A stretch of 64,000 nucleotides of DNA from Alphaproteobacteria bacterium. Lineage in GTDB: Bacteria; Pseudomonadota; Alphaproteobacteria; MPNO01. The notes below the pieces were generated by a model. It worked only from the letters and a program-made list of their open reading frames with translations, ran no database searches and was not told the origin of the DNA. Shown piece by piece: positions 467 through 23,027 of this stretch. Each line of letters opens with the position of its first letter. Position 1 is the stretch's first letter. The stretch spans positions 3,040,001-3,104,000 of the forward strand of contig OZ219866.1 in the NCBI GenBank assembly GCA_964291675.2, written 5' to 3'. The position numbers were made by a program, and so were the translations under genes.

Positions 467-877
467 TCAGCTCCAGACCTCCAGGCGCAACCCTCGAAAG
501 CCCTCGAAATGCCGCTCATTTGTCGTGACCAGGAACAGGCCGTTGACATACGCGATGGCCGCGATCTGCCCGTCGACAATTGGCGGGGTCCTGCCCAGGG
601 CGCTCAACCGCGCCCGCTCCCGCGCGTGCCAGTCCGCCGCGTCCCGGTCGTATTCCAGGACCGGGAAGCTGGGCAGAACGACGGTGTCCATATAGTGCTC
701 GATCCTTTCACGACGCCGCGACGGAGGAAGGCGGGCGCAGCCGAAGCGCAATTCGTGCCAGACGGGGGCTCCGATCGCCGCTTCGTCCTCGATCTGGCGT
801 AGACGGCGGACCACGCCCAGACTCGGCTTCGGCCGCAGAGGTTCCGATACGACGTTCGTGTCCATTAAGTACGTCAA
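467..877 (-). CDS. vapC: VapC/PIN-domain toxin; codons before the DT motif are supplied by the integrated element (TTG 877 or ATG 865)
   Basis: YLMDTNVVSE, ELRFG, DGQIAAIA, LVTTNERHF PIN motifs. Confidence 0.9.
   Translation of the reverse strand: MTYLMDTNVVSEPLRPKPSLGVVRRLRQIEDEAAIGAPVWHELRFGCARLPPSRRRERIEHYMDTVVLPSFPVLEYDRDAADWHARERARLSALGRTPPIVDGQIAAIAYVNGLFLVTTNERHFEGFRGLRLEVWS
848..872. repeat. att junction (left) of the integrated element, inside vapC
   Basis: tacgacgttCGTGTCCAttaagtac; 21/25 identical to 22713-22737. Confidence 0.85.
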
Positions 878-958
878 ATTCTGACCCCGATTCGGCCCCG
901 TTTCACCCGTCGTCGCATGCCGCTCCCAGGGGGCGATGGCATGCGATAAGTGATTGTC

Positions 959-987
959 TTGACGGGACTATTCCCCATTGCTACATT
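959..987 (+). promoter_or_regulatory. Putative sigma70 promoter for the integrase
   Basis: TTGACG (959-964), 17-bp spacer, TACATT (982-987). Confidence 0.5.
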
Positions 988-1124
988 GCCCTCCAACTTG
1001 CCAAGCTGGCGATGAGGCCGTCAGACCACACGTCCACTGTTGCCGTCACCATGCTTTCTGTACGCTTACGGCTCTGCTACCGGAAGTCGCCGCGCAGAAG
1101 ACGCCCCGAAGGAGCCCCCGCACC

Positions 1125-1907
1125 ATGGCGGAACGCCAGTACCGCACCCTCACCAAGCGCACCGTGGACCGTCTCTCGGTCAACGGCAAGGACGCCGTCT
1201 TCTGGGACAACGAACTTCCCGGCTTCGGCGTTCGAGTGTACCCCTCCGGCAAGAAGGTCTTCGTCGTCCAGACGCGCGCCTTCGGCCGCTCCAGGCGCGT
1301 CAGCCTCGGCACCCATGGCGACACCGACTTCTCCGTCGACCACGCCCGCAGGAAGGCCACCGACGTCATCGCGCGCATCAAGGCCGGAGAGCCGCCCGTT
1401 GCTCCCGAGCCAGCGTCCGACCCGACCGTCGCCGATCTCGCCGAGCGTTACCAGCGCGAGTATGTCGCGATGCACTGCAAGCCGGCCACCATCTCGCATT
1501 ACCGCCTCATGCTCCGCAAGCATATCGTGCCGGCCCTCGGCAAGCGCCGCGTCGCGGACGTCGAGTACAAGGACATCCTCGCCTTCCACAACAGCCTGCA
1601 CCAGATGCCGACCGTCGCCAACCGGGCGGCCGACATCCTGGTCAAGATGTTCAACCTGGCAGACGGGTGGGGCTGGCGTCCCTCGGGCAGCAACCCGTGC
1701 CGGAGCGTGCCACGCTTCCGGGTCGAGAAGCACGAGCGGTTCCTCACCCGCGAGGAGCTGTTCCGGCTCGGCGAGGCGCTGCGGGCGGCCCCGGAAAGGC
1801 GCCTCGCCTCGGCCCACGCGGCGGCGGCCAAGGTCGCCGCCGTGCGGATATCCGACAGCCTCGAAGCCGACATGGACACGCCGCCGGACGGTTCCGCCAA
1901 CCTGTGA
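1125..1907 (+). pseudogene. Tyrosine integrase with arm-binding domain; catalytic domain removed by an in-frame deletion
   Basis: LTKRTVDRL...FWDNELPGFGVRVYPSGKKVFVVQ arm domain, core-binding domain, ERFLT..E; then AHAAAA joins directly to the C-terminal KVAAVRISDSL with no TGxR, HDLRH or catalytic Y. Confidence 0.85.
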
Positions 1908-2048
1908 TCTACGACTGCACACCGCTCTTGTTTATCGCTCGCTCTGATTGACAGTACTTGTCCCGATCCTGCCGCGGCTGTCGAGATTCCGCCGAATTCT
2001 CGTCAGGGATGATAGGGTCAAGATGCAGTTCAACTCCGAAGTCATCCA

Positions 2049-2696
2049 ATGATCCTTGAGTTTCAGCAATGCGTTGTGACCGTGTATGGCTGTTTGGCTC
2101 CCGGCCGGTACACGCCCATCCTCGGTACAGGGTTCAGGCTCGGACGTCCCGACGTTGTCGTAACGGCCAAGCATGTTGTAGATGGAGGCTACAGCCGGTA
2201 TGCCGTGGCTGCCAAGAAGGCCAATGAAGTTCAAATCCAACTCGCGAAACGTGTAGAGTTCCCGGACGCTCCGGCCGATCTCGCTGTGCTCCTATTGGAC
2301 GGCGTATCCGATTCCTGGCAATGCTTCCGGCTTCTTGAGCTCGGAGACGGAAAGGACGCTCTGGGAGAACCCGTAGCATCGTTCGGGTATCCGGTTCACG
2401 ACAGTGATGCCTTCACGGCCCGATACATGGTCGGGCACATCCAACGTCAGTACCAGCACCAAGACGACGAACGCGAGGAGTCCTACTTCGCCTACGAACT
2501 CGGCTTTCCAGCGTTTCCCGGTCAAAGTGGGTCGCCCGTAGTTCTCCACGGGAACACCGCCGCCGTGCACCTCAACGCCCTCGCTGTCGTCACCAACAGC
2601 GTCGGTTACTTTGACCATCCATCTGCGGCCTCGTGGGCAATCGGACTGTCGCTCGCACCTTTCAGAGACTGGTTATCGTCGTTCGTTCCCTCGTAA
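2049..2696 (+). CDS. Trypsin-like serine protease
   Basis: Triad motifs TAKHV, ADLAVL, GQSGSPV; no signal peptide visible. Confidence 0.8.
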   Translation: MILEFQQCVVTVYGCLAPGRYTPILGTGFRLGRPDVVVTAKHVVDGGYSRYAVAAKKANEVQIQLAKRVEFPDAPADLAVLLLDGVSDSWQCFRLLELGDGKDALGEPVASFGYPVHDSDAFTARYMVGHIQRQYQHQDDEREESYFAYELGFPAFPGQSGSPVVLHGNTAAVHLNALAVVTNSVGYFDHPSAASWAIGLSLAPFRDWLSSFVPS

Positions 2697-2780
2697 CAGC
2701 CGAATACCGTTTGGCAATTGGCGCGAGGGCGAGGACCGGCGGCACGCAACCATCCGCCCAAGACCGCAGAGTACTTGGGA

Positions 2781-2978
2781 CAAACCTTCGCCTCGCGATT
2801 GCTCGCCCTCGGGGAGAGTCTCCCGATGATCGGGAAGCTGCTCGGTCACACGAAGGTGCAGACGACCGCGCGCTATGCACACCTTGGCCAGCACTCGGTC
2901 AAGGTCGCCGCCGCGAGAATCGCGGACAGCCTCGAAGCCGACACAGACACCCCGCCTGAAGTTTCCGCCGCCCCGTGA
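2781..2978 (+). pseudogene. Tyrosine integrase C-terminal fragment (copy 2)
   Basis: TFASRLLALGESLPMIGKLLGHTKVQTTARYAHL...KVAAARIADSLEAD. Confidence 0.8.
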
Positions 2979-3153
2979 TCTACGTCACACCTTCGCCTCC
3001 ACGGCTCTCGCGCTTGGTGAAAGCCTACCGATAATCGGAAAGCTCCTCAGTCACCGCGGTGTGGAGCCCGCTACGCGCACCTCCCGCGACTTGGTCGCCC
3101 CGACCTCCAGCGCACTCGGTGACCGGCCCCCCATCCATTCGGACGCGTCGTGA
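2977..3153 (+). pseudogene. Tyrosine integrase C-terminal fragment (copy 3, degenerate)
   Basis: DLRHTFASTALALGESLPIIGKLLSHR begins overlapping the stop codon of copy 2. Confidence 0.7.
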
Positions 3154-3828: not shown

Positions 3829-3904
3829 GAGTCAGTTATGCCTCGCCGTGACGGGTCGCTGCCGCAATAGGCAGGTGGCAGAACCTCGAATGTGTAGAAT
3901 TCCT

Positions 3905-4702
3905 TCAATCGTCCGCATCGCATCGTCGTGCAAGGAAGGTGCATACGCCGCATGCGAGCGTCACAACGAGCTCGGCCTCGTCTGTGGATACCGGCTGGCC
4001 TTCGCGAATATGACGTCCGCGTTCTGAAGCGTAGCCCCAAAGCTTTTCGACAGCCGTGTCGAGAGGTGGAGTCAAATCCAGCTTCCGGACGAGGCGGCCA
4101 AGCGTGACGTTGCGCTCGCCTGTCACCTCGCGAGCGATGCATTCAAGGGCGGACATTGCATGCTGGATGGCGCCGGTCACGTCCGGTTCTGGCCTGCGCG
4201 AGATATCGTGCAATGCCTCCTGGATTTCCTTGGCGGCGGCGGTGTACCCGGTGTCAGCCAGCGTCTCGTCGGCCTGTCGGGTTGTTTCGGTAAAGGTGGC
4301 GGAGCCTCGATAAACGATATCCCCATCCGTCATCTGCCACCCAATACCCATTTCCAGAAAGACGTCATTAAGCTGTGCCTCGAACGCCTCTGCCTGGTCG
4401 GAAGAACGTTGTGCAAGGGCTACGTGCAGCGCTTCGGATATATCGTACACTCTGAACCAGGGGCATTCCGAAATGAGATCGTTCACCTCGTCGGCGACAT
4501 TTGGATACTCACTCCAGTTCGAGGGGTCTGGCCGCACACGCAGCGTGCGGCAGACGACACGCCGCATGGAAGCCGGCCTCATACCAAGGTCTTCAGCAAT
4601 CTGAGGAATGGCATCTCGCAGGCCTTCGGGCGCATCCTCGCGAACGTAGATCTCTCGTTCCGGGGCGCGATAGCCGTATCGGGCGGAAAAACGGGAACCC
4701 AT
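3905..4702 (-). CDS. AbiJ-NTD4-like protein with HEPN-like C-terminus
   Basis: RFSARYGY...REDAPEGLR, WFRVYD, ALEC, GRH motifs; GGAGGAG RBS before ATG 4702. Confidence 0.7.
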   Translation of the reverse strand: MGSRFSARYGYRAPEREIYVREDAPEGLRDAIPQIAEDLGMRPASMRRVVCRTLRVRPDPSNWSEYPNVADEVNDLISECPWFRVYDISEALHVALAQRSSDQAEAFEAQLNDVFLEMGIGWQMTDGDIVYRGSATFTETTRQADETLADTGYTAAAKEIQEALHDISRRPEPDVTGAIQHAMSALECIAREVTGERNVTLGRLVRKLDLTPPLDTAVEKLWGYASERGRHIREGQPVSTDEAELVVTLACGVCTFLARRCDADD

Positions 4703-4913
4703 TGTGCTCCTCCTAATCAATGTTTCGAGCCGGTTCCCTCGCCGCCTAGGGTACTATGCGTCCGTCACCACCCCCCTCGATCAACAACCGGAGAGAGGGA
4801 AGATCTTCACCGCTGCCCACGGCGCGCATCACTTGAGCCCTGGAGGCCAGCCTTCTGCTCGCTGTGAAGGCGCGCCCCTTCGCGAAGACCGATCCACTCC
4901 CAACGCCCAACTC

Positions 4914-7040
4914 TTAACAGCCATCTTCGACATCCTCGCTTGAAGCATCGTTGGGGTCGGTAGGCACGTTCTGCCAATCCCGAACTAATGGCTCCCAACC
5001 AGCACCTTCGACTTTACCTTTTCGCTCCTCGTTCAACCCCAACCAAACACCCCAAAAATCTGGGTCAGCAGAACGCGGCTGCTGATGTTCTGGCAAATCA
5101 TTCATCCTAACCATTACGGGCAGTTCCGATGCCCAACCAAGGAGAATCGCGGCCTGCGAGGGCAAAGATGGGAGTTCACGAAGCAATCCCCGTAGGCTAT
5201 CCGGTACCAAGCGGTGCACCAACTCTTGATCGCGGTCGTTGCTAATACGATGAAGAAGAAACGTATTACACTGTGACAGTACAGTTGGGGACAGTTCCGA
5301 TGGACGCTGAGACGAAAGCACAAGTCCCAGACCGAACTTCCTTCCTTCCCTAGCGATTCGTTCAAAAACCTGACAACAAATGGAAGATGCGTCTTGATTT
5401 TCAATATCTTCTCTGTACCGTTTAACAAACGTATGAGCCTCCTCCATTATCAAAACAGTGGGAAGTGTAGTTCCAAATACTCTTACATAACGCTGCAGTG
5501 CCTCAAAAATAATTCGCGCGATGACCGCCGTAACAACATGAATTACTTCGGTCGGTACTAGTGAAAGATCAATTATCGACACAGATGCCTGTTCACTACC
5601 TTCAGTACCCAAGTACTGATCCAGCCACGAATCCAAGGATACACCCTCAGAGTCGTCAATTACCGCTTTCATTTTCGGATCTGACAAGAGTGTTCTGATT
5701 CTTGCAACAAGGAAGTCCACAAACTGGGTGACATTCTCTTGCTGTGCAAGTATCTCAAGATGATCGGCCAGATCCGTTCCACGAAACGCCACTGGAACAT
5801 CTTCATCCGGTCCCTCTGGGTACGCAATTCCCCCTACTTGATTCAGGCAATCGTTCAAGGTTTCAATTATGGTTTCGACTTGATTCTCACTAAATGCTAC
5901 AAAATACTCAACTTTTTCTCCATCCTTTTCAAATCTCTTTATATTCGTTTTGCCGGCGTCAACTATCGCATCCAGCAATGACTCTAGGCCGTAGCCTGGA
6001 AACTGCTCCATTCTCGTCCGCAAGTCCGCAGCCATAGCTTTGAGTTGAAATCCAAACCTAGTACATTCGCTCGAAATTGCACCAGAGCGGAAGTCACGCC
6101 GGATAGTTATCAGCCTTGAAGAAAGGTATCTGCGCAACTCTAGATCTCTTTCCTCTTCTGTCTGTTCGCTGACACCCAGCCTTCCAGCCTTTACCTCACG
6201 CAATGCGCGCCGCAAAAGAGGCCTTTGTGTTCTTGCACTGGCTTGAGTAAATGAACTCCACTCGGCGCTATTCCAAAACCACAATGGCACCTTCAGGGGC
6301 AATTCACCATTACTCGCATCAACCCGAAATACTTTCGCACGGATTAGGGGATCCCGACGAAAGGCACGCGCATACTCACCGTTGGGGTCGAGAATGACGA
6401 ACCGAGCGTTCATCCCGCGGTCACACCGCGAATTTGTTGCTTGTTCTAAGCACCAACGCACGACGCCAGCGACCGAACACGACTTTCCACTTCCAGTATT
6501 CCCGAGAACAGCGAAGTGACGTCCGAACAGCCTATTCGGGTCTACCGCTACTTCAGCATCACCAGCCAACGGACTCGTACCGATTTTTACCCTGCGAAAT
6601 GCTCCAGACTCTACAATAGACCGGAGTTGCTTCTCGGTAGGCAGGATGACGGGCGAGCCAACCGACGGCAACGCGTCCGCACCACGCCGAAATTGATATT
6701 CTGCGTCTCCCTTGCACGCCCTCAACGTACCAAGTGGATTAAGTCGAAGTCGTCGAAGTGGATATGGCAAGTCCACCAAGCCAAAATCCTGCATTCCTCG
6801 CCGCTTAGGAAACGGAGAACGTTCGACCGCTAGCCATTCCACTTGGCCGACCAAAAAAGCCTCATCTACAGACACAAGAAGATAGCTGTTTACTCTAGGA
6901 AATGACCTAGGTGTCCCGGAGTTCAGTGCCACTGAATCCGGAGCTTCCACATCAAGCGCAACCTTGATTTCGTCAGGCGAGACAAAGTCTACTGTTCCAA
7001 CGCGGAAACTGCCAGCGTACTCAAAGGGAGGCTGCGTCAC
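4914..7040 (-). CDS. herA: HerA/DUF87 ATPase of a Sir2-HerA anti-phage system
   Basis: HFAVLGNTGSGKS Walker A, ILDPNGEY, MEEAH Walker B, IAREGRKFG, SSQRPSELS. Confidence 0.9.
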   Translation of the reverse strand: MTQPPFEYAGSFRVGTVDFVSPDEIKVALDVEAPDSVALNSGTPRSFPRVNSYLLVSVDEAFLVGQVEWLAVERSPFPKRRGMQDFGLVDLPYPLRRLRLNPLGTLRACKGDAEYQFRRGADALPSVGSPVILPTEKQLRSIVESGAFRRVKIGTSPLAGDAEVAVDPNRLFGRHFAVLGNTGSGKSCSVAGVVRWCLEQATNSRCDRGMNARFVILDPNGEYARAFRRDPLIRAKVFRVDASNGELPLKVPLWFWNSAEWSSFTQASARTQRPLLRRALREVKAGRLGVSEQTEEERDLELRRYLSSRLITIRRDFRSGAISSECTRFGFQLKAMAADLRTRMEQFPGYGLESLLDAIVDAGKTNIKRFEKDGEKVEYFVAFSENQVETIIETLNDCLNQVGGIAYPEGPDEDVPVAFRGTDLADHLEILAQQENVTQFVDFLVARIRTLLSDPKMKAVIDDSEGVSLDSWLDQYLGTEGSEQASVSIIDLSLVPTEVIHVVTAVIARIIFEALQRYVRVFGTTLPTVLIMEEAHTFVKRYREDIENQDASSICCQVFERIAREGRKFGLGLVLSSQRPSELSPTVLSQCNTFLLHRISNDRDQELVHRLVPDSLRGLLRELPSLPSQAAILLGWASELPVMVRMNDLPEHQQPRSADPDFWGVWLGLNEERKGKVEGAGWEPLVRDWQNVPTDPNDASSEDVEDGC

Positions 7041-8078
7041 GTTGTGCCCCCATCATCGTCGACGGCGGAGACGTTGCCCTGTTGACGTTCGGAGCTGTCA
7101 GCAGTGCCCCACCGCCCTCTCAGCAGCTCCGCCATTCGGAACGTGGTGCGATCAATTGCAGGTTTTGGAAGGAAGTGGTCTACCAAACTCTCTAGGTCAC
7201 CTAGATGGTCCCCTAGAAGAAGAGAAATTTGAGCATGCCTCCCCAATCTCTCGTAAGTCCGCATTATCCTTCCTAGAGGATCACTGAAAGCAATGATTAC
7301 CAGATGTGTCGAGGGTATTGTCAACATATCCTCAATCACCCGATTTATATGCTCATCTCCAAAACTATAGCCGTAGCAGAAAACCGTGCTGTTCGGGCGG
7401 CAAATGGATGCTGCAAAGTCACGGAACAACTCTACGTAGGGATATGCTGCTGTTTCTCGGTCCTTTGCAGCATTGGGATAGATCATGAACTGGCGCGCAT
7501 CCACTCCATATCTTGTGTACATAGACAAAAAGGGAGCCGTACTCTTAGCACCGAATGGCAATCCAATTCGGCGAATTGCGTCACCGAAATCCAGCCAGTC
7601 CACCGATCCATGTAGTTTAGTGAATCTGGCTACACCCTCCAGGTATCGGGGCTCGCCTCTGATGCCAGGTGGGTTGTAGTGTAAATCTACATCCAGGCGC
7701 GATGCGCGAAATACGGGTGCAAGCGTTCCCACAAATCGGTCAATCAGTCTAAGTCCGGCAACATCCGCTCCTGCCTCAAGGTATCGATCATAGTTTGTCG
7801 TGAATATATTCAATCTTTCCCGTGTCCCCGAGCGACTGGCAAAACTCATCAAGAAGCTCACAAGATAATTGAATGCAAGATCACGTTTCTCCAATGCACA
7901 TCCAATTAAGTTATTCTCTCCCTCTAATATGGAGGCAGTAAAGGTCTGAAGCAAATTAGACAAATCCTTGTTCAAATTGGCTAGGGTCTCTTGTTCCGAA
8001 GATTCTTCTGTACCGCTTGACGAAAGTATCTCCAAGCCACGGATAAGTTCATTTGCCACGCGGATTTGATCTTCTATG

Positions 8079-9528
8079 GGTCGTGTCCCCAGACGTGGTG
8101 TAGGAGCTCTGGCCTTGGTTTGTAGCTGTGGGTAAGCAGCGCGCCGCCGCGACCGCCGCGAGTCTGGCGGCGGCGGGCTGCTTATCCACAGCGGAGGCCA
8201 TCGCGGTTCCGGTTTAGGGTTGGGTCGTGCAACGCCAACCCGAACCTGAGGAGGAACCGCGATGACCGACGACATGATGGCCCTGCGCGGGCTTTTGGAG
8301 AAGAGTTCCGACGCCGATCTGCTGCGCGAGATGATCGGCTTCTCGGCCGAGCGTCTGATGGCGCTGGAGGTGGAAGGGCTGACCGGCGCCGCCCATGGCG
8401 AGCGCACGCCGGAGCGGATCACGCAGCGCAACGGCTACCGCGAGCGGGCCTGGGAGACCCGCGCCGGCACGGTGGCGCTGAGGATCCCGAAGCTCAGGAC
8501 GGGGAGCTACTTCCCCGGCTTCCTGGAACCGCGCCGGATGGCCGAGAAGGCACTCACGGCGGTGATCCAGGAGGCCTACATCCAGGGCGTGTCGACGCGC
8601 TCGGTCGACGACCTGGTGCAGGCGATGGGGATGTCGGGCATCTCCAAGAGCCAGGTGTCCAGGCTGTGCGCCGAGATCGACGACAAGATCGAGAGCTTCC
8701 TCGACCGGCCGCTGGAGGGCGAGTGGCCCTATCTGTGGCTGGATGCGACCTATATCAAGATGCGCGAGATCGGGCGCATCGTCCCGGTCGCGGTGACCGT
8801 CGCGGTGGCGGTCAACGACCAGGGCCGGCGCGAGGTGCTCGGCATGGCGATCGGCCACTCCGAGGCCGAGACCTTCTGGACCGCCTTCCTGCGCGCGCTG
8901 ACCGGCCGCGGGCTCAAGGGCGTCAAGCTGGTGATCTCCGACGACCACAAGGGGTTGAAGGCCGCCGCGACCCGCATCCTCGGCGCCACCTGGCAGCGCT
9001 GCCGCATCCACTTCATGCGCAACCTGCTGGCCCATGCCGGCCGTCAGGGAAGGCGCGTCGTGTCTGCCTTCGTCGCCACCGCCTTCGCCCAGGACGACGC
9101 CCAGGCCGCGAGCGCCCAGTGGCGCCTGGTCGCCGACCAGCTCAGGCCCAAGGCGCCCAAGCTCGCCACCCTCATGGACGACGCCGAGCACGACGTCCTC
9201 GCCTACATGACCTTCCCCAGGGAGCACCGAACCAAGCTCCACTCGACCAACCCCATCGAGCGGGTCCATGCCGAGATCAAGCGCCGAACCAACGTCGTCG
9301 GCATCTTCCCCAACGAAGACGCCGTCACCCGCCTGGTCGGCGCCATCCTGCTCGAGCAGAACGACGAGTGGGCCGTCGCAAGGAGATACATGACACTGGA
9401 ATCCATCGCTCAGACCAGCGACAATCTCACCGTCAAGCCGCCCGCCGTGGCAGCCTGACCCTACCGGCCCAACACGCCGGATACCGCGATCGGCGCCGGG
9501 CTCTTACACCACGTGGCGGGACACGATC
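8079..9528 (+). mobile_element. IS256-family insertion sequence
   Basis: Terminal inverted repeats GGTCGTGTCCC...GGGACACGATC; 8-bp target duplication CTTCTATG at 8071-8078 and 9529-9536. Confidence 0.95.
8262..9458 (+). CDS. IS256-family (mutator-type) transposase
   Basis: RNGYRER, PKLR.GSYFP, WLDATY, SDDHKGL, QRC.IHF.RN, STNPIER motifs. Confidence 0.95.
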
Positions 9529-10447
9529 CTTCTATGTTTCCATCATTGCGTCCGGAATGGCTAGCGACACGTTTGGCCTCTGTCGTGATTTCTTCGTCCA
9601 GTGATGCAAAGGTCACACGGTTCATCCCGGGCAATCCTCTGCCTGTCGCCAATTGATGGACGGCGTGTGTTAGTCCGGAACCGACTAGCAAAGACAGGTG
9701 CTCCGACTGCACCAGAGCGGTTAGCCAGGGTTCGATTCGTCCACGCAAAACGTTGGATTCGAACTCTTGGCCTGCCTTCACCCAAGTACATGTGGAAGAG
9801 CCATCGAGTACGAACCTACGGTGTTCGCTAGAGTCCGTAGGCGAAGTCGCCAAGCTGACTGGCGCAGTGTCATCCCTACACTTTATTGTTTGCATATCCG
9901 ACACCTGTTCACGTCCGTTTCACCTCGTCCCAATGCAAGACTGGCCATGCGAATTGTATCAGCAAGGAGCGATCTATAGAAAAGGTGCGACATCCCAGTA
10001 TGCATCGGTAGCTGTAGTCAAGTTCTGCTTCAGTGCGACTACATGAAAAAGATGAGAGCATTGGTTCGGCTAGCTCTAAACTCGGTCCTCGCTGGATCGC
10101 GGAAGTTGAATTGCGTGCACCACGCACGTTACGGGCTGCTGGGCCACAGAAAATACCTCCCGCTGTACGTCGTTTCCCCAACCGTGATCTACATGGGCAG
10201 TCGGCTAACTTCCGCACTCCGCTTGCAGTTGATAGACCTTGCGCCCCTTGCGGGCGACGACCGGATACGGGAGTCGACAACGATCTGAAACCGCTCCGTT
10301 TCAAATGGTTGAACGTCAACGTATGTGGGAACCGGACACGGGGTGCGTCGGAGAAGAAGGCTAACCGATGCCGGGACGACGGCTGCAAGAGCGATGGGAC
10401 GTAGGCGCCTGTTCCGGTTCCCCACTCATGTGACGCGGCCCACATTC

Positions 10448-11214: not shown

Positions 11215-11600
11215 ACGGCACCGCGACGCCGAGACGCCCGCCCGAAGGCCCGGTGCCGGGCGCCGCCAGCCAGAGGGCCGACACGCGCCCGATGCCCGCA
11301 AGCGCCCCGATGGTCCCGGCGAGGCCCGCGTTGGCATCCCCATCCTCGCCTGCCCCGGACAACGATCCGGGGGATACCGGACGCGCGGCCTCGAAGACGA
11401 GCGCCGCGAGGCGCGGACCCCGCCAGGTCTCGATGAGCGTCAGGCCGGTCGGCGCCGTCCTTCCGCCCGCATGGATTGCGTAGCCGGGCAGCACGTCCCG
11501 CCGGGCCACCGCGCGCACCAGCTTGACCAGCGCCGCCACATGCGGCTCGCCCGCGAGCGCCGGCATTGCCGGTCCGGAGCCCGCCGCGATGCCGCCGTTG
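11215..11600 (-). pseudogene. traK: TraK-like C-terminal remnant (inverted relative to the other tra genes; boundaries approximate)
   Basis: LVKLVRAVARRDVLPGY...IETWRGPRLAALVFE resembles the F-type TraK C-domain. Confidence 0.45.
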
Positions 11601-12008
11601 CGGATCGGCGCATGGACTCGTTCCATCCTCGACCGCGCGCTGGAACGCGCCGGCGAGACCGCGCGGCAAACCCTGCCCGGCTCGACCGCGCCCCTTCCGG
11701 CCGAACGGCATGCCGCAGGAATGGCGGGACCGCGTTCCGGCACGGCCGAAGTCCTGATCTTCAGCAGCCTGTCGGTGCTCCGGCACCGCGGCACGCCGCC
11801 CGGCACGACGATCACGGCGGGCACCCTCTCGATGCCCAACAGCCGGAACAGGCGCGGGTCGATGGCGACCCCCGCGTCATGGCCGCCGAGGCGCGCACCG
11901 ATCCGCTTCGCGGTCGCGGGCAGGCCGTCCTCCATGACGCCGCGCAGCACCAGCGGCGCACCGGCCCGGGCCGCCTCGCGCGCCCATTGCCGCCAGCTCG
12001 CGGCCGGC
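11600..12008. pseudogene. trbC: F-type TrbC split by an internal inversion
   Basis: + strand ...AEVLIFSSLSV ends at 11778; its continuation PAASWRQWAREAARAGAPLVLRG...IDPRLFRLLGIERVPAV is on the - strand from 12008 to 11779. Confidence 0.75.
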
Positions 12009-12299
12009 GCCGCCTGCAAGGTCTTCGGCCCGCTGCTCCGCGCCTTCAGCCTCCGCCACGGCCTCGACGTGCTCGCCGTCTCGCTCACCGGCGAGGCGCT
12101 GGAGGGCTGGCCGGAGGCGGTGGCCGACCGGGGGCGCGCCGCCCGGCTCGGCCTCGGCGACGCTCCCGTCCCCGCCCTCGTGCTGTTCGACACGGCCACG
12201 AAGCGGATCGTCCCCGTCGGCTTCGGCGTCATGGCCGAGGACGAGATGGCCGAACGCATCTACGCCCTCACCGCACTGGAGCCGGGCAATGACTATTGA
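12009..12299 (+). pseudogene. traF: TraF (thioredoxin-like) C-terminal remnant
   Basis: CKVFGPLL...VLAVSLTG...VPALVL...PVGFGVMAEDEMAERI; directly precedes traH. Confidence 0.7.
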
Positions 12300-13413
12300 T
12301 CTGAAGAAGGGCGCGGTCTGTGCCGCCCTGCTGCTGGCGCTGGCCGCGCCCGCCTCCGCCGACGTGCTCTCGGAGATCGCCGAGACCATGGCCAAGCTCC
12401 GGGCGCTGGCGCAGTGGGTCAACAGCCAGAACCTCAACTCCTGCGAGACCGCCCAGGCGCTGGTCGGCGCGGCGTGGTCGAAGAACGACCGGGCGAGCGC
12501 GTCGATCTGCGCCGCCATCGGGACTTCCCAGGGTATCTTCTCGGACTATGCTGCCGCCAAGCACGGCTGCGGCGCCGACGGCAAGCGCCACTCGACGCTC
12601 GCCGCCGCCTCGGGGCCGATGGCCGACCAGGTGCCGGTCAACGTCAACTACGCCTGGAAGGCGGTCCGGGCGTCCTCCTTCCTCGCCGGCGACACCCAGC
12701 TTGCCGAGTTCGCCATGGCGGTCACCGGCACGGTGATCGTCACCGCGCCCACCTCGGACGGCGATACCTCCGGCCCCCGCGTGCGGATTCTCGAACCGCT
12801 GGCGCTCGACCGCCGCGTCACCGAGACGCTGATGGAGGGCGGCGGGGCGCTCCCGGTCTACCGCTGCGACGAGAGCACGCGCTGCCTCAACCCGGCGCTG
12901 GGCACGGCGACGGTGCCGCCCAACCGGGGCTTCCGGGCGCGGGTGGCGGCGCTGCTGCGCGACATGGTCGACGCGGTGCGCACCGACACCGCCGTGCCCG
13001 CCCCCGCGCTCGGGCTGGTGAACCTCACCACGCTGCCGGTCTACCGGGTCGCCAACGCGGCGGCGGCCTACCGGGGCGCCGTCATCGACCAGGAGATGGA
13101 CGCGCTGGCCGAGGCCGTGGCGCTCGACGTGATGCAGGTGTGGCTCACGGACCTGCACCGCACGGTCGAGGAGCGCGCCGGGACGCTCGACATCGCCGAC
13201 GGCGAGCAATTGCGGCGCTGGCGCGAGGGCCTGCGCGCCAACCGCGTCGCGCTCGCCCGGCACCGGAACGAGGGGCTGGCGCGCTTCAACACGGCGTTGG
13301 CGGTGGTCGAGAAGCTGCGGCTGATCGAGACCGAGCTCGCGGGCGCGCTCTCGGCCGATCTGCGCGCGGCATTGGCCTTCGCGCGCGGCGGCGCCGGGGC
13401 GGGGTCGCGGTAG
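12289..13413 (+). pseudogene. traH: TraH with an internal in-frame deletion after the signal peptide
   Basis: Signal peptide, then NSQNLNSCETAQALV and NYAWKA; lacks the N-terminal GCGGID region; shorter than typical TraH. Confidence 0.7.
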
Positions 13414-14636
13414 ACCGTCCGGCCCTCGCCAACGAGGCCGGCAACTACAACGTCGCCGTCACGGGCAAGTCGGGCTCGGGCAAGTCGGTGCTGATGCAGG
13501 AGCTGGTCACCGGGCTGATCGGCGCCGGCGGCGAGGCCGTGGTGATCGACGACGGGCGGTCCTTTCAGCACACCGCCGAAGCCCTGGAGGGCGCGTTCAT
13601 CGCCTTCGGCAAGGACCCGGCCTGCCTCAACCCCTTCGCCATGATCGACGCCGGAACCGCCAATCACGACGGCGACTACCGCGAGGAGTGTTTCGCCATG
13701 CTGGCCGGCGTCATCGGGCGCATGGCCCGGCGCCGGGGCTCGATCGACGACATCGAGGCGGCGCTGATCGCCGAGGCGATCGCGGCGGCCTGGGACGAGG
13801 CCGGCAACGACGCCGATCTCGGCACGGTCAGGAAGAACCTCGAAGCAAGGGACGACCGCCGCGCCGCCGACATGGCGACCTCCCTCGGCCCCTGGTGCCC
13901 GGGCGGCGCGATGGGGAGGCTGTTCGCAGAAAGCAACGTCCCCGATCTGGAGAACGCGCTCACGGTGTTCGAGCTCGCCGAGCTCAAGGGCCGGGGCGAC
14001 GTCCAGGCGGTGGTGCTGATGCTGGTGGTCTTCCTCGCCACCCAGCGCATGTATCACGGGCCGCGCACGCGGGCGAAGGCCATCGTCATCGACGAGGCCT
14101 GGGACCTGCTCTCCGGCGAGGACAGCAAGGCGTTCCTCGAGGGCGCCGCGCGGCGCGCCCGCAAGTACCGCGGCGCGCTGATTACCGGCACCCAGTCGGT
14201 CAACGACTATTACGCCAACCCCGCCGCAAGGGCGGCCTGGGAGAACTCGGACTGGACGATCTTCCTCGCCCAGAAGGACGAGTCGGTCGAGCTGCTGAAG
14301 TCCGAGAAGCGCATCCACTGCGATCCCGGCATGGAGCGCGCGCTGAAATCTCTCACCACCGCGGACGGCCGCTATGCCGAGCTGGTGCTGCACGGCCCGG
14401 ACGGCTGGCGCGTCGCGCGCCTGGTGCTCGACGCCTGGTCGGTGGCGCTGTTCTCGTCGCGCGGCCCGGCATTCGCGGCGGTGGAAAACCTGAAGGCGCA
14501 GGGGCTGAGCACTGTCGAGGCCATCGACCGGATTGCCGGGGGCGCGCGCCCCGCAGGGGTCGTTCGCCCCGGGGACGCGGCCGGTCCTGCCTCTGCCGGA
14601 CATTCCGAAACGACCGACACGGGAGAGCGCCCATGA
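13414..14636 (+). pseudogene. traC: TraC (VirB4 ATPase) C-terminal half, 5' truncated
   Basis: NYNVAVTGKSGSGKS, IDDGRS, LNPF, IDEAWDLL, ARKYRG..TGTQS; no start codon or N-terminal domain. Confidence 0.85.
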
Positions 14637-15265
14637 CATCCAAACGAAACCCCGGAAGAGAGCAAGGCGCCCTTCGCTGGCCGGACGACCCGGAGACGGT
14701 GACGGCCGCCGACATCGACTTCACCGCGCTCGCCCATGTGCTGGCTAATACCTGCCGCCGGGGCGGGTGCATGCGCGGCTACCACTCGGTCGCGGCGCAC
14801 GCGGTCATCGTCTCGGAAGAGATCGAGGCGCTCGATGGGCTCGGCGACGAGGACCGGCGGCGGCTGGCCCTGCACGCGCTGGTCGCCAGCGCGCCGTCCG
14901 CCTGGCTCCGGGGGCACCTGCCGGACTCGCAGCGCGCCGCCGAGCGGGCCGGCAAGCTCGCAACGGCGATCGAGACGGCGGTACGAGAGGCGGCGGGGCT
15001 GGATGCCGTGCTCGACGAGGAACACGCGGAACTGCTCCGTTTCGTGACCCGCATGGCGGCGGCGGCCGAGAGGCGCGACCTGCTCGATGGAAGCCTGTCC
15101 GCCGGCGCCGGCGTCGCCTTCCCGCCGCTCAAGCGGCGCCTCCGCCCGGTGGCGCCCGACAAGGCCGCCGAGGCCTGGCTCGCCCGGTTCCGCGCGCTTG
15201 CGGGCGACCGGGCAGCGTTGCGGCGGGCAGGCGGCGAGGGAGCGGACGATGCGCCCGCGTCCTGA
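14633..15265 (+). CDS. HD-domain-like (YfdR/5'-deoxynucleotidase-like) protein, degenerate motif
   Basis: DIDFTALAHVLANTCR.GG...YHSVAAH...ALHA. Confidence 0.55.
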   Translation: MTSKRNPGREQGALRWPDDPETVTAADIDFTALAHVLANTCRRGGCMRGYHSVAAHAVIVSEEIEALDGLGDEDRRRLALHALVASAPSAWLRGHLPDSQRAAERAGKLATAIETAVREAAGLDAVLDEEHAELLRFVTRMAAAAERRDLLDGSLSAGAGVAFPPLKRRLRPVAPDKAAEAWLARFRALAGDRAALRRAGGEGADDAPAS

Positions 15266-15491
15266 CCGGCGCCGGCCCGCGGCGAACGGCATCGCCGTGG
15301 AGCGGGACGCGGAGACGGTGTTCCGCGCCGCCATCCTGGCGGGCGTTCTGTCGGCCGAACCGGGCGCGCGCAACTGGGCGGGCCACTACCTCTACATGTT
15401 CCACGACGAGGACGGCACCGCCTGGTTCAAGCACCGGGACACCCGCGCCCATGTGAGGATGACCGCGCGGCGGGCGGGGAACGCGGCATGA
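15249..15491 (+). CDS. Small hypothetical protein in the tra cluster
   Basis: Coupled to its neighbours; YLYMFHDEDGTAWFKHRDTR. Confidence 0.5.
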   Translation: MRPRPDRRRPAANGIAVERDAETVFRAAILAGVLSAEPGARNWAGHYLYMFHDEDGTAWFKHRDTRAHVRMTARRAGNAA

Positions 15492-15865
15492 GCGAGCTTC
15501 GCCTGCTGGCCTGCGCCGTGCTGCTCTCGGGCGGCGTGGCGGCGGCGGTGGCCGCGGCGACGGTGCGGCTTGCCGCGCCCGAGGCGCCGCGCATCGCGTC
15601 GGTCCGTCTCGGGGAGATGACCGCGGCCTGGACGACGCGCGCCGCGGCGGATGGCCGGACCGCCGAGGACGCGCGCGCCTGGGGCGGGGCGCTGGAGGCC
15701 GCGCTCGGCCGGGTGGCTGAAACGCATCGCGTCGTTCTCCTCCCGGCCCGGGCGGTCGCCGCCGGGGCGCCGGACCTGACGCACGAGGTCGAGGCGGCGC
15801 TCGCGGCGGTGCTCGCGCGCGGCCGGACGGACGGCGGCGTGCCGGTCCCGGGAGGCGGGGAATGA
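15488..15865 (+). CDS. trbI: F-type TrbI-like protein
   Basis: N-terminal TM segment, IASVRL, VVLLPARAVAAGAPDLT; position after traC. Confidence 0.65.
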   Translation: MSELRLLACAVLLSGGVAAAVAAATVRLAAPEAPRIASVRLGEMTAAWTTRAAADGRTAEDARAWGGALEAALGRVAETHRVVLLPARAVAAGAPDLTHEVEAALAAVLARGRTDGGVPVPGGGE

Positions 15866-16116
15866 CCGCGCGGCGCCGGAAGATCGGCCTCGCGGTCATG
15901 ATCGCGCTGGCGGCGCTGTGGCTGGGCGCGGCCTCGCGCGTCCACGTCAATGCGAGCTGGTCGGACGAAGCCTGGGGCTACGCCGCCTTCCCGCTGTTCG
16001 GCGAAGAGCCGGCGGTCGGCGACCGGGTGCTGTTCGAGCCGCCCGATGCGGTCGAATCCCCGGTGCCGTATCTCAAGACGGTGCGCGGCGTGCCGGGGAT
16101 GCGCGTGACGGTCGGA
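15862..16116 (+). pseudogene. S26 conjugal transfer peptidase (TrhF-like), 3' truncated
   Basis: VNASWS...GDRVLF..P...YLKTVRGVPG then an abrupt junction with opposite-strand FN3 DNA. Confidence 0.65.
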
Positions 16117-17490
16117 GAGCCGGACCGAGGTGCCGGCGGACCAGCCCGGATCGGAACTACCGATAATTGCAGCACCCCCAATCGAATACTCTGTCGTGCC
16201 GACGCAGAACTTCAGGGCACGAAGTGCAGTATTTGCTGGAATAGGAGTAAACGCGGCTTGCAGCGGGTTGCTCGCAGGGGGATTGAAGTCAGCCACGACA
16301 GTGAAACTATAAGTCGTGCCGCCGACCGTGAACTCGTTGTCAGATAACAGTGAGTTGCATTGAGCTTGAGTTACGCAGCCAACGCCTCCGCTGCCTGAGG
16401 TAAACGCCTGCGGCGTCAGCGTCGCGCACCAGATTTCGCCGGTCGCCAGGGTGCAGGCGGCGGCCGGCATGCCCGTGTCGACGACCCAGTCGCTGTTGCC
16501 GTTGGCGTTCACCGCGCGCACCCGCACCCGGTAGGGCGTGCCGTTGGTCAGGCTCGAAATCCGATGCGAGGCCGCCGTGCCGCTGTGGCTGGCGTCCACC
16601 CAGCCCGCGGATGCCGCGCCCGTGGTCACCGCCGCGTCGTTGGCGACCGTGCCCGAGTCCGCCGAGGTGTAGTGCACGTCGTAGCCCGTCACCGTCCCCG
16701 ACGGCGCCGTCCACGACAGGTCCAGCTTCGTGTCGCCCGCCGAGACGTTCAGCCCCGTCGGCGCGGCGGGCGGGTCGGAGGATCCGGACTGCGCCGCCGA
16801 GCCGTTGACGCGGATTCTGTAGGACTCGCCCGACAACAAGGTCCTGGCGGGGTTGCCATAGTAGCTGCTGTTCCCGACGCTCCAGCCTGTGGCGGCTCCC
16901 GAATCCTCATTGCCCGAAGTCGTCGTCACCAGACTCAGACTCGAGCCTGCGCTAAAGAAGGGAAAGTACAGGAAATACGTGGTGTCCGCGGCAAGCGTGG
17001 TGCCCGAAGGCGCCGCGAACGCGACGTTGACGGTGCCGGCGGCGCTGCCGAGGGTCGACGGGACCGTCAGGTCCGCGATTTTCTCGTTCGGCTTCCCGAT
17101 GTTCGTTCCACTGTCGAAAGCGGACCAGAGCTGCGCCTTCACGTTATTGCGCTGTCCGGTGGTCAGGGCGGTGTATGTCCGAATCCTCGCCTCGATGCTC
17201 TCGAGGGTATAACCGTCGGCGTTGCTTCCGGTCGTGAAGCCCTGCGCGCGCGCGATAGTGAATCGCCAGTTGGAATCTAGGCCCGCCGTCTGCCCGATGT
17301 TGCTCACCAGCACGTCGGCGGCGGCCGGCGCGGCGGCGAAGGGGGAGAGCGCGCCGAGCAGCAGCGCGAGGGCGGGGAGGAGTAGGGAGAGGCGGGCGCA
17401 GCGGCGCCCGGGACGCGGGTCAGGCCTGCGCGGAGACTCTGACGGGGAAGCCGGCTTGCGCGCGCCGGCCGGGCGCCGGGCGCAGGTCAT
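16115..17490 (-). pseudogene. Secreted fibronectin type III/adhesin-like protein, 3' truncated (upstream in-frame ATG at 17727)
   Basis: Signal peptide ending AAA|DVLVSNIGQ, AQGFTTGSN.DGYTL domain, FN3 (PAAPTGL...LSWTAP...GYDVHY...YRVRVRAVN). Confidence 0.7.
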
Positions 17491-17725: not shown

Positions 17726-17727
17726 AT

Positions 17728-20353: not shown

Positions 20354-20874
20354 AATTCGCCAATGCCGTCAGCCACCCGCCCTCTAGATCGGTCGGCTGC
20401 TGGTGCTCATGCGGCATGCGGAGACCGTCGCCGGGGCGGTCGAGATGACCCTGTACCTGCCGACCCTGCCGTCGTGGTTGTTCGCCGCTTCACCGCCCAT
20501 GCGTCCAAATCCAGCCTGCGATAGGCCACACGGTTGCCGAGGCGGTAGAAGGCAGGGCCGTCACCACTCACGCGGTAGCCGCCCAGCGTGCGATGCGAGA
20601 GTCCAAGGCGATTCGAGCAAGAACGACCAATCCCCAGGCCGAAAGGCGGACCAAATCCTCCTCCAACTTACGGACGCGCGGGCTACCCTTGGCGCAGGAC
20701 AACAGACCGCTGACCTGTGGAGTAGAGTGCAAAGACCCTGGCAACGCCGTACATTTCGCATCCACCGGCGGTATCGTCTATTGCACCTACAGAGGCCATT
20801 CTCCAACGTCGGCAGAACCATCTCTACACCGCTTGGCAAGCGCACCGAACAGTGTTTACTGGAGACATCAGGAC

Positions 20875-21723
20875 ATGGCAGACAGACCATTCGACGCCGT
20901 GCCGGAAGGCGTGGAATTCCTCCGCTTTTCAGAACGCAACCATAGAAACTGCGCTGTTGAGACTATGCGCAACGTCGCAGTACTTCCAAGTTCGGTGCGG
21001 AAAACACTCGACGACGTCGGCACTTTGCTTTCGCTCCTTGACCAAATGGCTTCATGCCTCTGGGGGTGTCGTGGGGGAAGCCACGCGATAGAGCATCTGG
21101 TCGGTCGCTCCGTGAGTTCCGCCCTCGCTTCATTTCGTCTAATCGAAATGGGACACTATGACGAGGCATGGGCGATAACACGCAATGTCGCGGAAGTCGG
21201 TAACCTTATGTGGCTATTCTTCGTCGATCCGGACGAGCTTCATTCCTGGCTACGATTGTCCGCACGAGAGCGTCGCTCCAAATTCCGCCCGGTCGTAGTT
21301 CGAGAAAGGATCGAAGCGGCCAACAGCGTTGTGCCACATGACCGCGACTCGTACTCGCTCATGAGTGAAGTTGGAGTTCACCCGAGTCCAGAAAACACAC
21401 CTCATGCAAGGCACAACGCATACGGTATTCCCACACTCGGCGGATACTATCAGGAACGCGGCTTTGTCGAGTCCCTCGCTCAGCTCGCATGGGCGATTGC
21501 TTCCGTAGGCGGTCCAGCCGCAAGAATGGCGAATATTGACGACAAGTATGAAACGAGGATTGTCGATCTTGCAACCAACCTTGTGCGGGAATTGCCGAAT
21601 TTGCCGGGAAGTGATGAAACAACCGACACATCAGAGGCTCTTCTCGCGAGGAGTAACTTCATCGATAGCCGATTTCGGAAAGTGCACAGCGCTGCGCGTA
21701 AGCCGGATGACGCAACAAAGTAG
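20875..21723 (+). CDS. Hypothetical protein, DUF5677/HEPN-like
   Basis: GHYDEAWAITRNVAE and YSLMSEVGVHP; AGGA RBS before ATG 20875. Confidence 0.5.
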   Translation: MADRPFDAVPEGVEFLRFSERNHRNCAVETMRNVAVLPSSVRKTLDDVGTLLSLLDQMASCLWGCRGGSHAIEHLVGRSVSSALASFRLIEMGHYDEAWAITRNVAEVGNLMWLFFVDPDELHSWLRLSARERRSKFRPVVVRERIEAANSVVPHDRDSYSLMSEVGVHPSPENTPHARHNAYGIPTLGGYYQERGFVESLAQLAWAIASVGGPAARMANIDDKYETRIVDLATNLVRELPNLPGSDETTDTSEALLARSNFIDSRFRKVHSAARKPDDATK

Positions 21724-22009
21724 CAATGCGAGAACTTGCTTTCCCATTCCCATGGTGATGTTCGGGGCGGGTGGAAGAAGCCGGCGTAGGCGCCCCCGGG
21801 GATAGCGCGGCCCCTCCCGCGTCGGCTCAGTCAATACAGCACCGTCGCATGTTGGGCACGCGTACGTAAGGCACCATATCTCGGATCACCGCCCGTTATG
21901 GATAGAGGTGCGCACCGGCGGGCAGTAGGGGCTGCTCAATCACACCGCGCGCGAATCCTCGTTCACTGGTGAGCGGGACGGCAAGCTGTCTCCGCGCTTG
22001 CTTCCGCGC

Positions 22010-22231
22010 TCACGTTTTGCCGAGCCTGTCCGCCTCCGCCGTCGTGGTCGCCCGGCGCCGAGTCGCCCACGCGTCCAGATCCGGCCGGCGATACCGCACC
22101 CGGTTGCCGAAGCGGTGGAAGGCCGGCCCGTCGCCGCTCACGCGGTAGCCATCCAGCGTGCGGGGCGAGAGGCCGAGCCAGGCCGCCGCGCGCCGGGTGT
22201 CGAAGAAGCCGCCCGTGTCGTCGTCGTTCAT
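22010..22231 (-). CDS. Helix-turn-helix excisionase/AlpA-like protein
   Basis: DTRRAAAWLGLSPRTL...GPAFHRFGNRVRYRRPDLDAW. Confidence 0.8.
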   Translation of the reverse strand: MNDDDTGGFFDTRRAAAWLGLSPRTLDGYRVSGDGPAFHRFGNRVRYRRPDLDAWATRRRATTTAEADRLGKT

Positions 22232-22697
22232 GGTGCCCCCCGTTCGATTGCCGGATGTTCCGGACCCGCTGCGCCGCCGGCCCGGTGCCGGCCGCCTGCG
22301 GCCATGCCAGGAGATGCCGCTCCTGCCGGCCGCAACGCGCGCCAGCGCAGCGAAGGTAGGCGGAGCCGCCGGGGTTTTCAAAGCGCGCGGTTAGGGGCCT
22401 TCCGGCAAGGTCACGCCGTGTGGATCAGTGCGCGCGCTCACGCGCGACGGCGCCGACTCCGGCCGCCGGAACGTCCTCGTCAGCGTGCCCGGCACCCTTC
22501 GGCCGCATCCGGGAAGGCCCGGCCCAGGATCAGGGCGCCGGCAAACGGCAAGCTTTGGGGCATCCTACATCCAGGGGGCATGCGCGTTCGCTGCGGCGGG
22601 CGGTTTCGGAGTCCGATCGCTCTCTGGATGCTTACGGGGCTCGATTCGTTTCGGAGGGAATGTCGAAAAAGGTTCAGTATTACGGTAGGTTACGGAG

Positions 22698-22742
22698 CTA
22701 TTGAGAGTTTTCTACAACGTGCGTGTCCAGCAAGTACCGCAC
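22698..22742 (-). pseudogene. vapC: Stranded original 5' end of vapC
   Basis: GTG CGG TAC TTG CTG GAC ACG (MRYLLDT) 3 bp after the antitoxin stop, then element sequence HVVENSQ and stop. Confidence 0.8.
22713..22737. repeat. att junction (right) of the integrated element
   Basis: tacaacgtgCGTGTCCAgcaagtac; matches 848-872. Confidence 0.85.
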
Positions 22743-22745
22743 GGC

Positions 22746-23027
22746 TCACAGCGACACGTCGCGGCCCGGGCTCCTGTCCCGCACGTCCCCGAACAGCTCG
22801 TCCGGGTCGAGATCGAGTTCGGCGAGGTCGGTCGTCTCCAGGAATTCCCGATACGCCGCCGCGAAGCCGCGCCGCTTCCCGGCAAGCCGCTTGAACTGCC
22901 GGTGGCCGACCAGCACGGCGACCGGTTCTCCGCGCCGCGTGAGCTCCACCGTCTTGCCGTTCTCCGCCTCCCGGATCAGTCGCGGCAGGTTGCGGCGCGC
23001 ATCGGCGATGGAATGCTTCTCGGTCAT
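22746..23027 (-). CDS. Phd/YefM-family antitoxin
   Basis: SIADARRNLPRLIREAE.GKTVELTRRGEPVAVLV. Confidence 0.9.
   Translation of the reverse strand: MTEKHSIADARRNLPRLIREAENGKTVELTRRGEPVAVLVGHRQFKRLAGKRRGFAAAYREFLETTDLAELDLDPDELFGDVRDRSPGRDVSL

Follow-up and report, generated by a model that had tools for sequence, protein, structure and literature searches.

An island inserted at the first codons of a vapC toxin gene points to a family of integrative elements with vapC as its probable attachment site

The usual view of site-specific islands gives them a single address in each genome, such as a transfer RNA (tRNA) gene or a housekeeping gene. Integrases of the P4-like/Arm-DNA-bind_3 (DUF4102-type) kind belong to tRNA-targeting islands, and the mycobacterial prophage-like element phiRv1 integrates into the repeated REP13E12 family by means of a serine recombinase. 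Islands specific for dusA are described, in the parts of Farrugia et al. 2015 (PMC4482086) used here, as integrating into the 5′ end of that gene, supplying a new 5′ end and leaving the old one at the far boundary, and a clade of HE-PICI integrases is described as repeatedly targeting prophage late genes (PMC10111431). Our study concerns a stretch of 64,000 nt from Alphaproteobacteria bacterium (assembly GCA_964291675.2, contig OZ219866.1, positions 3,040,001–3,104,000 of the forward strand), hereafter the window, in which an antitoxin gene and its vapC toxin gene have been parted by an inserted island. It is very probable, from the comparisons of sequence set out below, that this island represents an integrative-element family that uses the 5′ codons of vapC (L-x-D-T-N-V) as its attachment site.

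The antitoxin gene (23027..22746, minus strand, 93 aa) belongs to the Phd/YefM family (Pfam PhdYeFM_antitox, 7e-12; TIGR01552 above cut-off) and takes the VapB position in the split operon. Three base pairs past it begins a stub, GTG CGG TAC TTG CTG GAC ACG, which breaks off into CAC GTT GTA GAA AAC TCT CAA TAG. This displaced original 5′ end of vapC (22698..22742, minus strand) is 14 codons long, seven of the host followed by seven of the element and a stop, and translates as MRYLLDT/HVVENSQ. The toxin body resumes on the same strand after ~21.9 kb of foreign DNA, as an intact open reading frame (ORF) of 136 codons (877..467, minus strand) that matches the PIN domain (PF01850, 9.4e-9, 36.4 bits against a cut-off of 23.6), its matches to the NCBIfam VapC equivalog models staying under their cut-offs. 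From 877 this ORF reads TTG ACG TAC TTA ATG GAC ACG AAC GTC GTA TCG GAA; from Asn-8 onward (856 downward) it is host DNA and its first five codons (877–863) are the end of the element, with in-frame starts at 877–875 (TTG) and 865–863 (ATG) ahead of the Asp-Thr codons at 862–857. The vapC ORF of the window is complete by itself because the element end provides these starts. The acidic residues D6, E42 and D102, nearly invariant in our PIN alignment, are all present in it.

The two junctions of the island, one on the side of its integrase gene (attR-like, 848–872) and one on the side of an excisionase-like (xis-like) gene (attL-like, 22713–22737), are copies of a 25-bp imperfect direct repeat. 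They agree at 21 of 25 positions, and the core CGTGTCCA (857–864 and 22722–22729) is identical in both. The motif that spans the junction occurs once in the window against 0 expected and the predicted empty allele was found in four relatives, which places the repeat beyond chance. All these features had been pointed out in an earlier note made from the letters of the window alone, namely the antitoxin, the 3-bp gap, the break-off after MRYLLDT, the distant toxin body and the matching junctions, and each was recovered as described. The note also held that joining the two junctions gives an intact 136-codon vapC; alleles of that kind do exist in relatives, whereas the ORF of the window is already whole unjoined. 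In the respects described so far the locus behaves like the dusA islands as these are described: the integrase gene lies at the island end by the target, the 5′ end of the target is replaced with its ORF kept whole, the displaced 5′ remnant stays at the far boundary, and imperfect direct repeats flank the island. A replacement 5′ end that keeps the ORF, with the displaced end at the far boundary, was found both in the window and at the junctions of relatives.

The original arrangement is preserved in related genomes. Orthologues of the window VapC were found in 4 of the 100 relatives searched, three being congeneric and one from the same family, and in all four an antitoxin orthologue (75–88% identical) ends 6–12 nt ahead of vapC (72–87% identical). 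The junction in these empty loci reads TGAGCCGTGCGGTAYYTGCTGGATACGAACGTCGTG, which is the left of attL joined to the right of attR; one example is TGA GCC GTG CGG TAT CTG CTG GAT ACG AAC GTC GTG TCG GAA CCG. This is the empty vapBC allele that the earlier note had predicted. The note had seen a difficulty for its proposal should the antitoxin and this VapC never be adjacent in relatives; they are adjacent in 4/4 orthologous loci. The insertion has therefore physically split a toxin–antitoxin (TA) operon, as claimed, with the genes 21.9 kb apart in the window against 6–12 nt in relatives. That the two genes adjoin in the orthologous loci settles, in our view, that the window antitoxin is the cognate of the window vapC.

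A second vapBC locus in the same genome tells the same story. The N-terminus of the window integrase (Int1) recurs at C1:14675–15214 (C1 and C2 being contigs of this assembly) with 94% identity but truncated at residue 180, and the flank upstream of it has 89% identity to the element end of the window that runs from the junction to the integrase start (878..1124; 276 nt, 89.5%, C1:15212–15486). A different vapC, FitB-like and 40% identical to that of the window, begins ~250 bp beyond this integrase (C1:15.5 kb). The DNA common to both copies stops at CTAATGGACAC, and past that point the loci are unrelated. The xis-side end of the window recurs in turn, 75% identical, at C2:3,622,643–993, preceded by a FitA-like antitoxin (Pfam 1e-21) and the stub GTG ATC GTC GTG GAC ACG / CAA ATC GTA GAA AAC (MIVVDT up to the break). 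This antitoxin and vapC are neighbours in five of the six best-matching loci of relatives, where the junction is again left plus right; in the sixth (genome G011) an element from a different subfamily of integrases sits at this very codon of vapC. The placement of its two ends indicates that the second element extends over both contigs of the assembly. That a second vapBC locus of the same genome is occupied here and empty in relatives supports the proposal that vapC is the target.

The relatives of the integrase were surveyed with the Int1 N-terminus alone as query, nothing from vapC being included, and with one genome per species. This returned 54 loci, from relatives that are all metagenome-assembled genomes of Alpha- and Gammaproteobacteria, Binatia, Thermodesulfobacteriota, Bryobacterales and Spirochaetia. 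Three loci were excluded, L036 for having only 84 nt upstream, and L072 and L073 for matching just the false tail of the window ORF (see below). In 33 of the 51 testable loci, the ORF divergent from the integrase gene, starting 230–539 nt upstream, encodes a PIN protein (PF01850 or PF13470); the earlier note had proposed looking for split vapBC loci with GGACACG-type cores at the edges of such islands. Among the 36 ORFs that were aligned, two of them from the window's own genome, PF01850 was matched by 32 and PF13470 by 13; three of the four PF01850-negative ORFs (L024, L033 and L065) match PF13470 and the fourth (L026) has no match.

Alignment of 34 junctions on the Asp codon located the break. 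On the element side the sequence is conserved per integrase subfamily up to GAYAC; on the host side only AAYGT is common, and further on the sequences belong to unrelated PIN subfamilies. The Asp-Thr codons of identical element copies vary (GAC or GAT, ACC or ACG), which places the exchange at or within these codons. Read by eye from the same alignment, all 34 element ends have an in-frame ATG, GTG or TTG one to five codons ahead of Asp, and these element-supplied starts are followed by two hydrophobic codons, like natural VapC N-termini.

Maximum-likelihood inference on 43 integrases of ≥300 aa, with 6 paralogues, placed 42 of them in one clade with 100/100 support; the remaining one, L066, fell outside, among the paralogues. 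Of this clade, which ranges over Pseudomonadota, Binatota, Thermodesulfobacteriota and Acidobacteriota, 29 members are PIN-adjacent and occur in all subclades, 12 have other flanks and are scattered singletons, and 1 is untestable. As a control, 13 other arm-type integrases of the window's genome (33–48% identical) were inspected, and none has a PIN ORF within 1.5 kb upstream or a tRNA or transfer-messenger RNA (tmRNA) gene in its flank. In the plasmid collection the nearest integrases are 41–47% identical, with a PIN neighbour in neither of the two inspected and no cultured model found, and among the viral contigs no relative of the integrase was found.

The other end of the element gave a corresponding picture. 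Each of the five xis-side ends inspected, which come from three other genomes, has a short ORF that runs to Asp-Thr and then continues (H/D)-(V/I)-V-G; with the two of the window's own genome, this stub architecture is present in 7/7. A recognizable antitoxin precedes four of the five stubs (Phd/YefM twice, MazE/AbrB once, and once an Rv0623-like protein whose match, at 27.6 bits, is just under the cut-off of 28.3), and none was recognized for the fifth. One genome of the same genus (G011/G106, loci L060–L065) holds at least 5 copies with integrase regions 100% identical, at different PIN genes, and we list these matching copies in support of recent activity of the element elsewhere; the antitoxin and vapC halves of this multi-copy element lie on different contigs in G011. 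G011/G106 also has upwards of 15 copies of an insertion sequence of ~2.4 kb, and the element itself contains one of these. The earlier note's proposal of an island family that targets the conserved YLxDTNV codons of vapC is supported by the empty sites, the second copy, the 33 PIN loci and the five xis-side stubs.

The integrase of the window is itself a remnant. Int1 (1125..1907, plus strand) is a truncated tyrosine integrase gene of 260 aa that retains only its arm-binding domain (Arm-DNA-bind_3, PF13356, 6e-11, residues 9–92) and its SAM-like/core-binding domain (PF14659, 3e-7, residues 101–158); the Pfam scan gave no match to the catalytic domain PF00589, and none of the NCBIfam integrase models reaches its cut-off. 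The homology of relatives to Int1 ends at about residue 235 (nt ~1829), and the last ~25 codons come from an unrelated 89-nt repeat. Full-length relatives have 389–400 aa (L023, L042 and L064), with PF00589 at about residues 205–370, and PF00589 is also present in the second integrase of L021, L035 and L047. This second arm-type integrase (Int2), ~43% identical and complete in its domains, stands no more than a few dozen bases after Int1 in 40 of the 49 loci that are long enough, and is absent from the window, having been lost. The earlier note had placed an arm-type integrase ~250 bp inside the junction; the start at 1125 and the arm domain agree with this, whereas only 260 aa without a catalytic domain are left. 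By its domain content Int1 is a pseudogene of the arm-type tyrosine integrase family and, given this truncation, the island copy is to all appearance a fossil; with Int1 truncated and Int2 absent, we infer that it is no longer self-mobile.

At the opposite end lies the excisionase-like gene (22010..22231, minus strand; 73 aa from the ATG at 22231), which matches HTH_17 (1.7e-7) and which the same note had correctly read as a helix-turn-helix (HTH) gene ~480 bp inside the other junction. Copies 84–89% identical occur in the second own-genome element and in the element of genome G001. The integrase and this HTH_17 gene are the only island genes common to the compared DNA of relatives.

These observations suggest how the locus arose. 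Positions 865–22721 are most probably the decayed remnant of a site-specific integrative island, which entered a chromosomal vapC gene by recombination within its first codons, at or beside the Asp-Thr codons (GAC ACG). Elements of the clade to which it belongs have tandem Int1 and Int2 genes at one end and the HTH_17 excisionase-like gene at the other, with a putative attP core that mimics the start of a vapC gene and with GAYACNAAYGT-type sequences as partner sites. Most vapC genes carry a sequence of this type, since it codes for the first catalytic Asp of the PIN fold. Insertion has two outcomes: the original 5′ stub stays behind the antitoxin, and the toxin gains a start codon of the element with four to five N-terminal residues, its ORF kept whole. 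The sequences themselves show the insertion, the empty sites, the place of the break and the association throughout the family. Catalysis would be due to Int1 and/or Int2, with the HTH protein as a putative directionality factor. Since the target is a motif of a multi-copy gene family, one type of element can occupy many different vapC paralogues, and it is present in several phyla. It is speculation that the two differing half-sites beside GAYAC would fit a heteromeric enzyme. The tandem integrases were also considered as a 'bipartite module' (BIM), which was rejected, a BIM being one recombinase with an SMC-like protein.

Set against the described systems, the behaviour of a site-specific island that replaces a 5′ end is known, while vapC is an unusual and well-supported class of target. 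The likeness to the dusA islands rests on this behaviour. As far as those islands are described, the housekeeping gene dusA is present once and offers a single site in each genome, whereas the motif targeted here belongs to a multi-copy toxin family, with many paralogues used and several copies of the element per genome; furthermore, a two-gene operon is split and intact elements have two tandem integrases. The HE-PICI clade offers a precedent, in the portions of PMC10111431 drawn on, for a common class of protein-coding targets rather than one locus, although its targets, element type and hosts differ, and its interruption delays host-phage gene expression, whereas insertion into vapC leaves the ORF whole. 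XerC/XerD at dif and Tn554 TnpA/TnpB are likewise systems in which paralogous genes for two tyrosine recombinases stand side by side, although Xer enzymes are without the arm-binding domains of the present integrases. With P4-like/Arm-DNA-bind_3 islands the element shares the domain order of arm, SAM-like core and catalytic domain and a small HTH partner; unlike in those islands, neither junction has a tRNA or tmRNA gene at it or nearby, none being present in positions 1–26000 of the window. As with phiRv1, a genome has several copies of the attachment site and more than one can be used, although for phiRv1 the site is a repetitive element of one species and here it is a conserved coding motif of a protein family across phyla. 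A vapC or TA locus used as an attachment site was not found in the full-text literature searched, though large tables of target genes could list PIN or vapC genes unremarked, and the passages of that literature that were checked treat vapBC as cargo or neighbour only.

Several findings weigh against the proposal that the family targets vapC. Eighteen of the 51 relatives are without a Pfam-recognized PIN neighbour; many relatives, moreover, are kin or come from similar material, and the counts are not of independent events. Both integrase copies of the window's genome are truncated, and the ends of C2 and C1 expected to bridge the second element do not join cleanly. A promoter scan of the element end found one promoter-like site (959–987), directed at the integrase, and no sigma-70-like promoter directed at vapC, which is weak evidence either way. 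Finally, none of the members yielded an excised circle, an attP or an integration event to observation. Ten of the 18 non-PIN loci were scanned against Pfam, with matches to CheW/REC, SDR, ABC ATPase, FAA hydrolase, an MFS transporter and, weakly, a transposase, and no match in four. L026 has a PIN-like N-terminus (LIDANV) that Pfam does not match, short D-T-N ORF remnants persist in L034 and L053, and L058, L066, L068, L069 and L071 have no match to an ad hoc PIN profile, three of these having truncated integrases. Where they can be aligned, non-PIN junctions usually start with a partial core (GACGCA AAC, GATGCG TAC or CATGCA AAT). Such flanks would fit secondary sites or later rearrangement. 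They would also be expected, along with the few conserved letters on the host side, if these integrases loosely recognized a short word, about GAYACNAAYGT, and struck vapC often for the many copies it offers, with no adaptation to TA genes. This account gives the same landing place and departs from ours only on adaptive targeting, and we consider it improbable, as every diverged type of element end keeps an in-frame start one to five codons ahead of Asp with two hydrophobic codons, and as PIN-adjacent members occur in every subclade while the others are scattered singletons.

Two further explanations dispense with insertion into vapC altogether. The antitoxin and vapC could be addiction genes of the island itself, located at its ends, or unrelated orphans, with the likeness of the junctions due to recombination between vapBC paralogues; TA genes are described as common island cargo, and the window's genome has 9 PIN matches to the window VapC. 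We give this very little credence, given that the antitoxin and vapC are contiguous and island-free in 4/4 relatives, that the same element end adjoins more than 30 unrelated PIN genes, and that the element encodes both the stub and the new 5′ end, which are conserved in each integrase subfamily. Nor is it at all likely that one or both junctions are artefacts of assembling a repeat-rich metagenome-assembled genome. The assembly does consist of 2 contigs with 6.7% estimated contamination and one contig end in a multi-copy gene, and the unitigs of one of three public sequencing runs break near the core, at 858–872. However, the same architecture is found in independently assembled genomes, complete chromosomes included, two other runs hold island-interior pieces of 1–5 kb that are 100% identical (e.g. 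2879–8106), and unitig breaks are expected at a sequence common to many loci; the pieces listed for these runs span neither junction. Targeting of vapC by an integrative-element family therefore remains, by a wide measure, the explanation that we favour.

What the insertion does to the TA pair is a separate matter. We attach low confidence to a functional consequence for the pair, and a change in toxin or antitoxin expression and the reversibility of the insertion are both inferred. It is conceivable, though we think it unlikely, that such elements take over the toxin, with vapC uncoupled from its antitoxin and from the autoregulated promoter and set beside the control region of the integrase. 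Were this so, the host VapC would become an effector under the control of the element, for example as an abortive-infection arm for defence cargo or as a sensor of excision, while the antitoxin would remain under host control tens of kilobases away. Targeting of a family motif would also let elements hop onto plasmids that bear vapBC, which would explain their spread across phyla. Orphan vapC genes beside restriction-modification systems, with vapB elsewhere in the genome, are described in the passages of PMC9296519 consulted, and in the case of a takeover these could be footprints of such insertions.

Apart from any takeover, an address that consists of the catalytic-site motif of the most abundant TA family would offer dozens of landing sites per genome, in many phyla and probably on plasmids too. 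Islands in several copies, like the ≥5 identical ones of one relative, would find an explanation in this, and so would closely related integrases in distant lineages and some of the 'orphan' vapC and vapB genes of annotation pipelines. The locus provides a concrete case in which a mobile element physically rewires a TA operon with the toxin ORF intact, and it points to a pair of integrases whose natural target is short, well defined and very common.

The window's genome has further tandem pairs of arm-type integrases (C1:185479/186682, C1:1120073/1121250 and C2:28291; 43–48% identical to the window's). One of these pairs lies ~390 nt after an ORF that ends, by eye, in a ClpX-like N-terminal zinc-finger sequence, and an unpaired integrase lies ~430 nt from an ORF that resembles, again by eye, an Xre/DUF2384-like antitoxin. 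These integrases may have other protein-coding targets.

As regards the assembly, a simple joining of the C2 end to the C1 start was tried and rejected, the homology of the crossing ORF to a protein of G001 stopping at the contig end. C2 ends within a multi-copy gene (C2:3656056–3656457) for a protein family of ~305 aa that is also present in the G001 element and has 9 tblastn matches in the window's genome, 6 of them near full length; that it ends inside a copy of this family probably explains why the assembly breaks there. Three public metagenome runs have a summed contig depth over 1135–1701 and 11900–14700 that is 10- to 100-fold above that of unique cargo, and close relatives of the integrase and of the conjugation (tra) fragments described below are therefore abundant in the three sampled communities.

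The interior of the island is a mosaic of 47–77% GC in a genome of ~70% GC. Next to the integrase lies a cassette (1825..2984, plus strand) in which 89-nt direct repeats (1825–1913 and 2896–2984, 82% identical) flank the gene of a trypsin-like peptidase (2049–2696; Trypsin_2, 6.7e-12, with PDC-M35A and LmuA-like N-terminus matches). The start of the first repeat (1825) marks the cut point of the integrase, and the repeat supplies its false C-terminal tail. Both repeat copies end in GTGATCTACG, and they recur at C2:3638002–3638100 and in L072 and L073; the repeat has the look of a second attachment site or of the terminus of a further small mobile cassette. Beyond the cassette lie a protein with an AbiJ N-terminal domain (3905..4720, minus strand; AbiJ_NTD4, 3e-24; PADLOC candidate PDC-S32, 2e-27) and a SIR2-HerA defence pair (4914..9904, minus strand). 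HerA (4914–7040) matches PDLC04098 (8e-254). SIR2 (PDLC04079) is in two pieces, C-terminal within 7037–8431 (profile 96–425) and N-terminal at 9461–9904 (profile 28–108), its gene being interrupted by that of an IS256/Mutator-family transposase (8262–9458, plus strand; Transposase_mut, 1e-119).

F-type conjugation fragments follow on the plus strand (11523..16347): the C-terminal end of TraF (11523–12299, profile 143–224 of 224), TraH without the first ~95 positions of its profile (12289–13413, profile 95–357 of 358), part of a TraG/TraC-type P-loop protein (13401–14636), TrbI (15488–15865) and a weak match to an S26-like peptidase (15862–16347). No relaxase family was found among the 26 island ORFs scanned against Pfam, a set that leaves out ORFs of <100 aa and those judged spurious, and the tra proteins of the window have matches in 0 of 57 loci of relatives (~6 kb beside each integrase, the whole G001 element and the second own-genome element). 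In one relative, L035, a TrwC relaxase follows Int2, and in another subfamily an S24 repressor stands right after the integrases. The earlier note had spoken of a family of integrative and conjugative elements; with fragmentary tra genes, no complete transfer set and none common to the relatives compared, that part of it is not supported, the TrwC relaxase of L035 notwithstanding.

A tandem array at 17419–17770, listed with a start-to-start spacing of 8 nt and by eye built of a 24-nt unit, codes for some ten repeats of PSGPAAQR close to the N-terminus of a minus-strand fibronectin-type-III protein, within a long ORF (15427–17892). The 3′ part of this ORF is probably not real, as it overlaps the TrbI and S26 genes on the other strand. 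The remaining cargo on the plus strand comprises a C-terminal fragment of an OmpR-type winged-helix protein (18356–18685), an ORF with a match to a TIR-like effector (19304–20353) and an ORF with a weak DUF5677 match (20593–21723). A 148-nt remnant at 20460–20607 is 78% identical to part of the xis-like gene (22030–22177) and may be a second element end, hinting at the tandem accretion of two islands.

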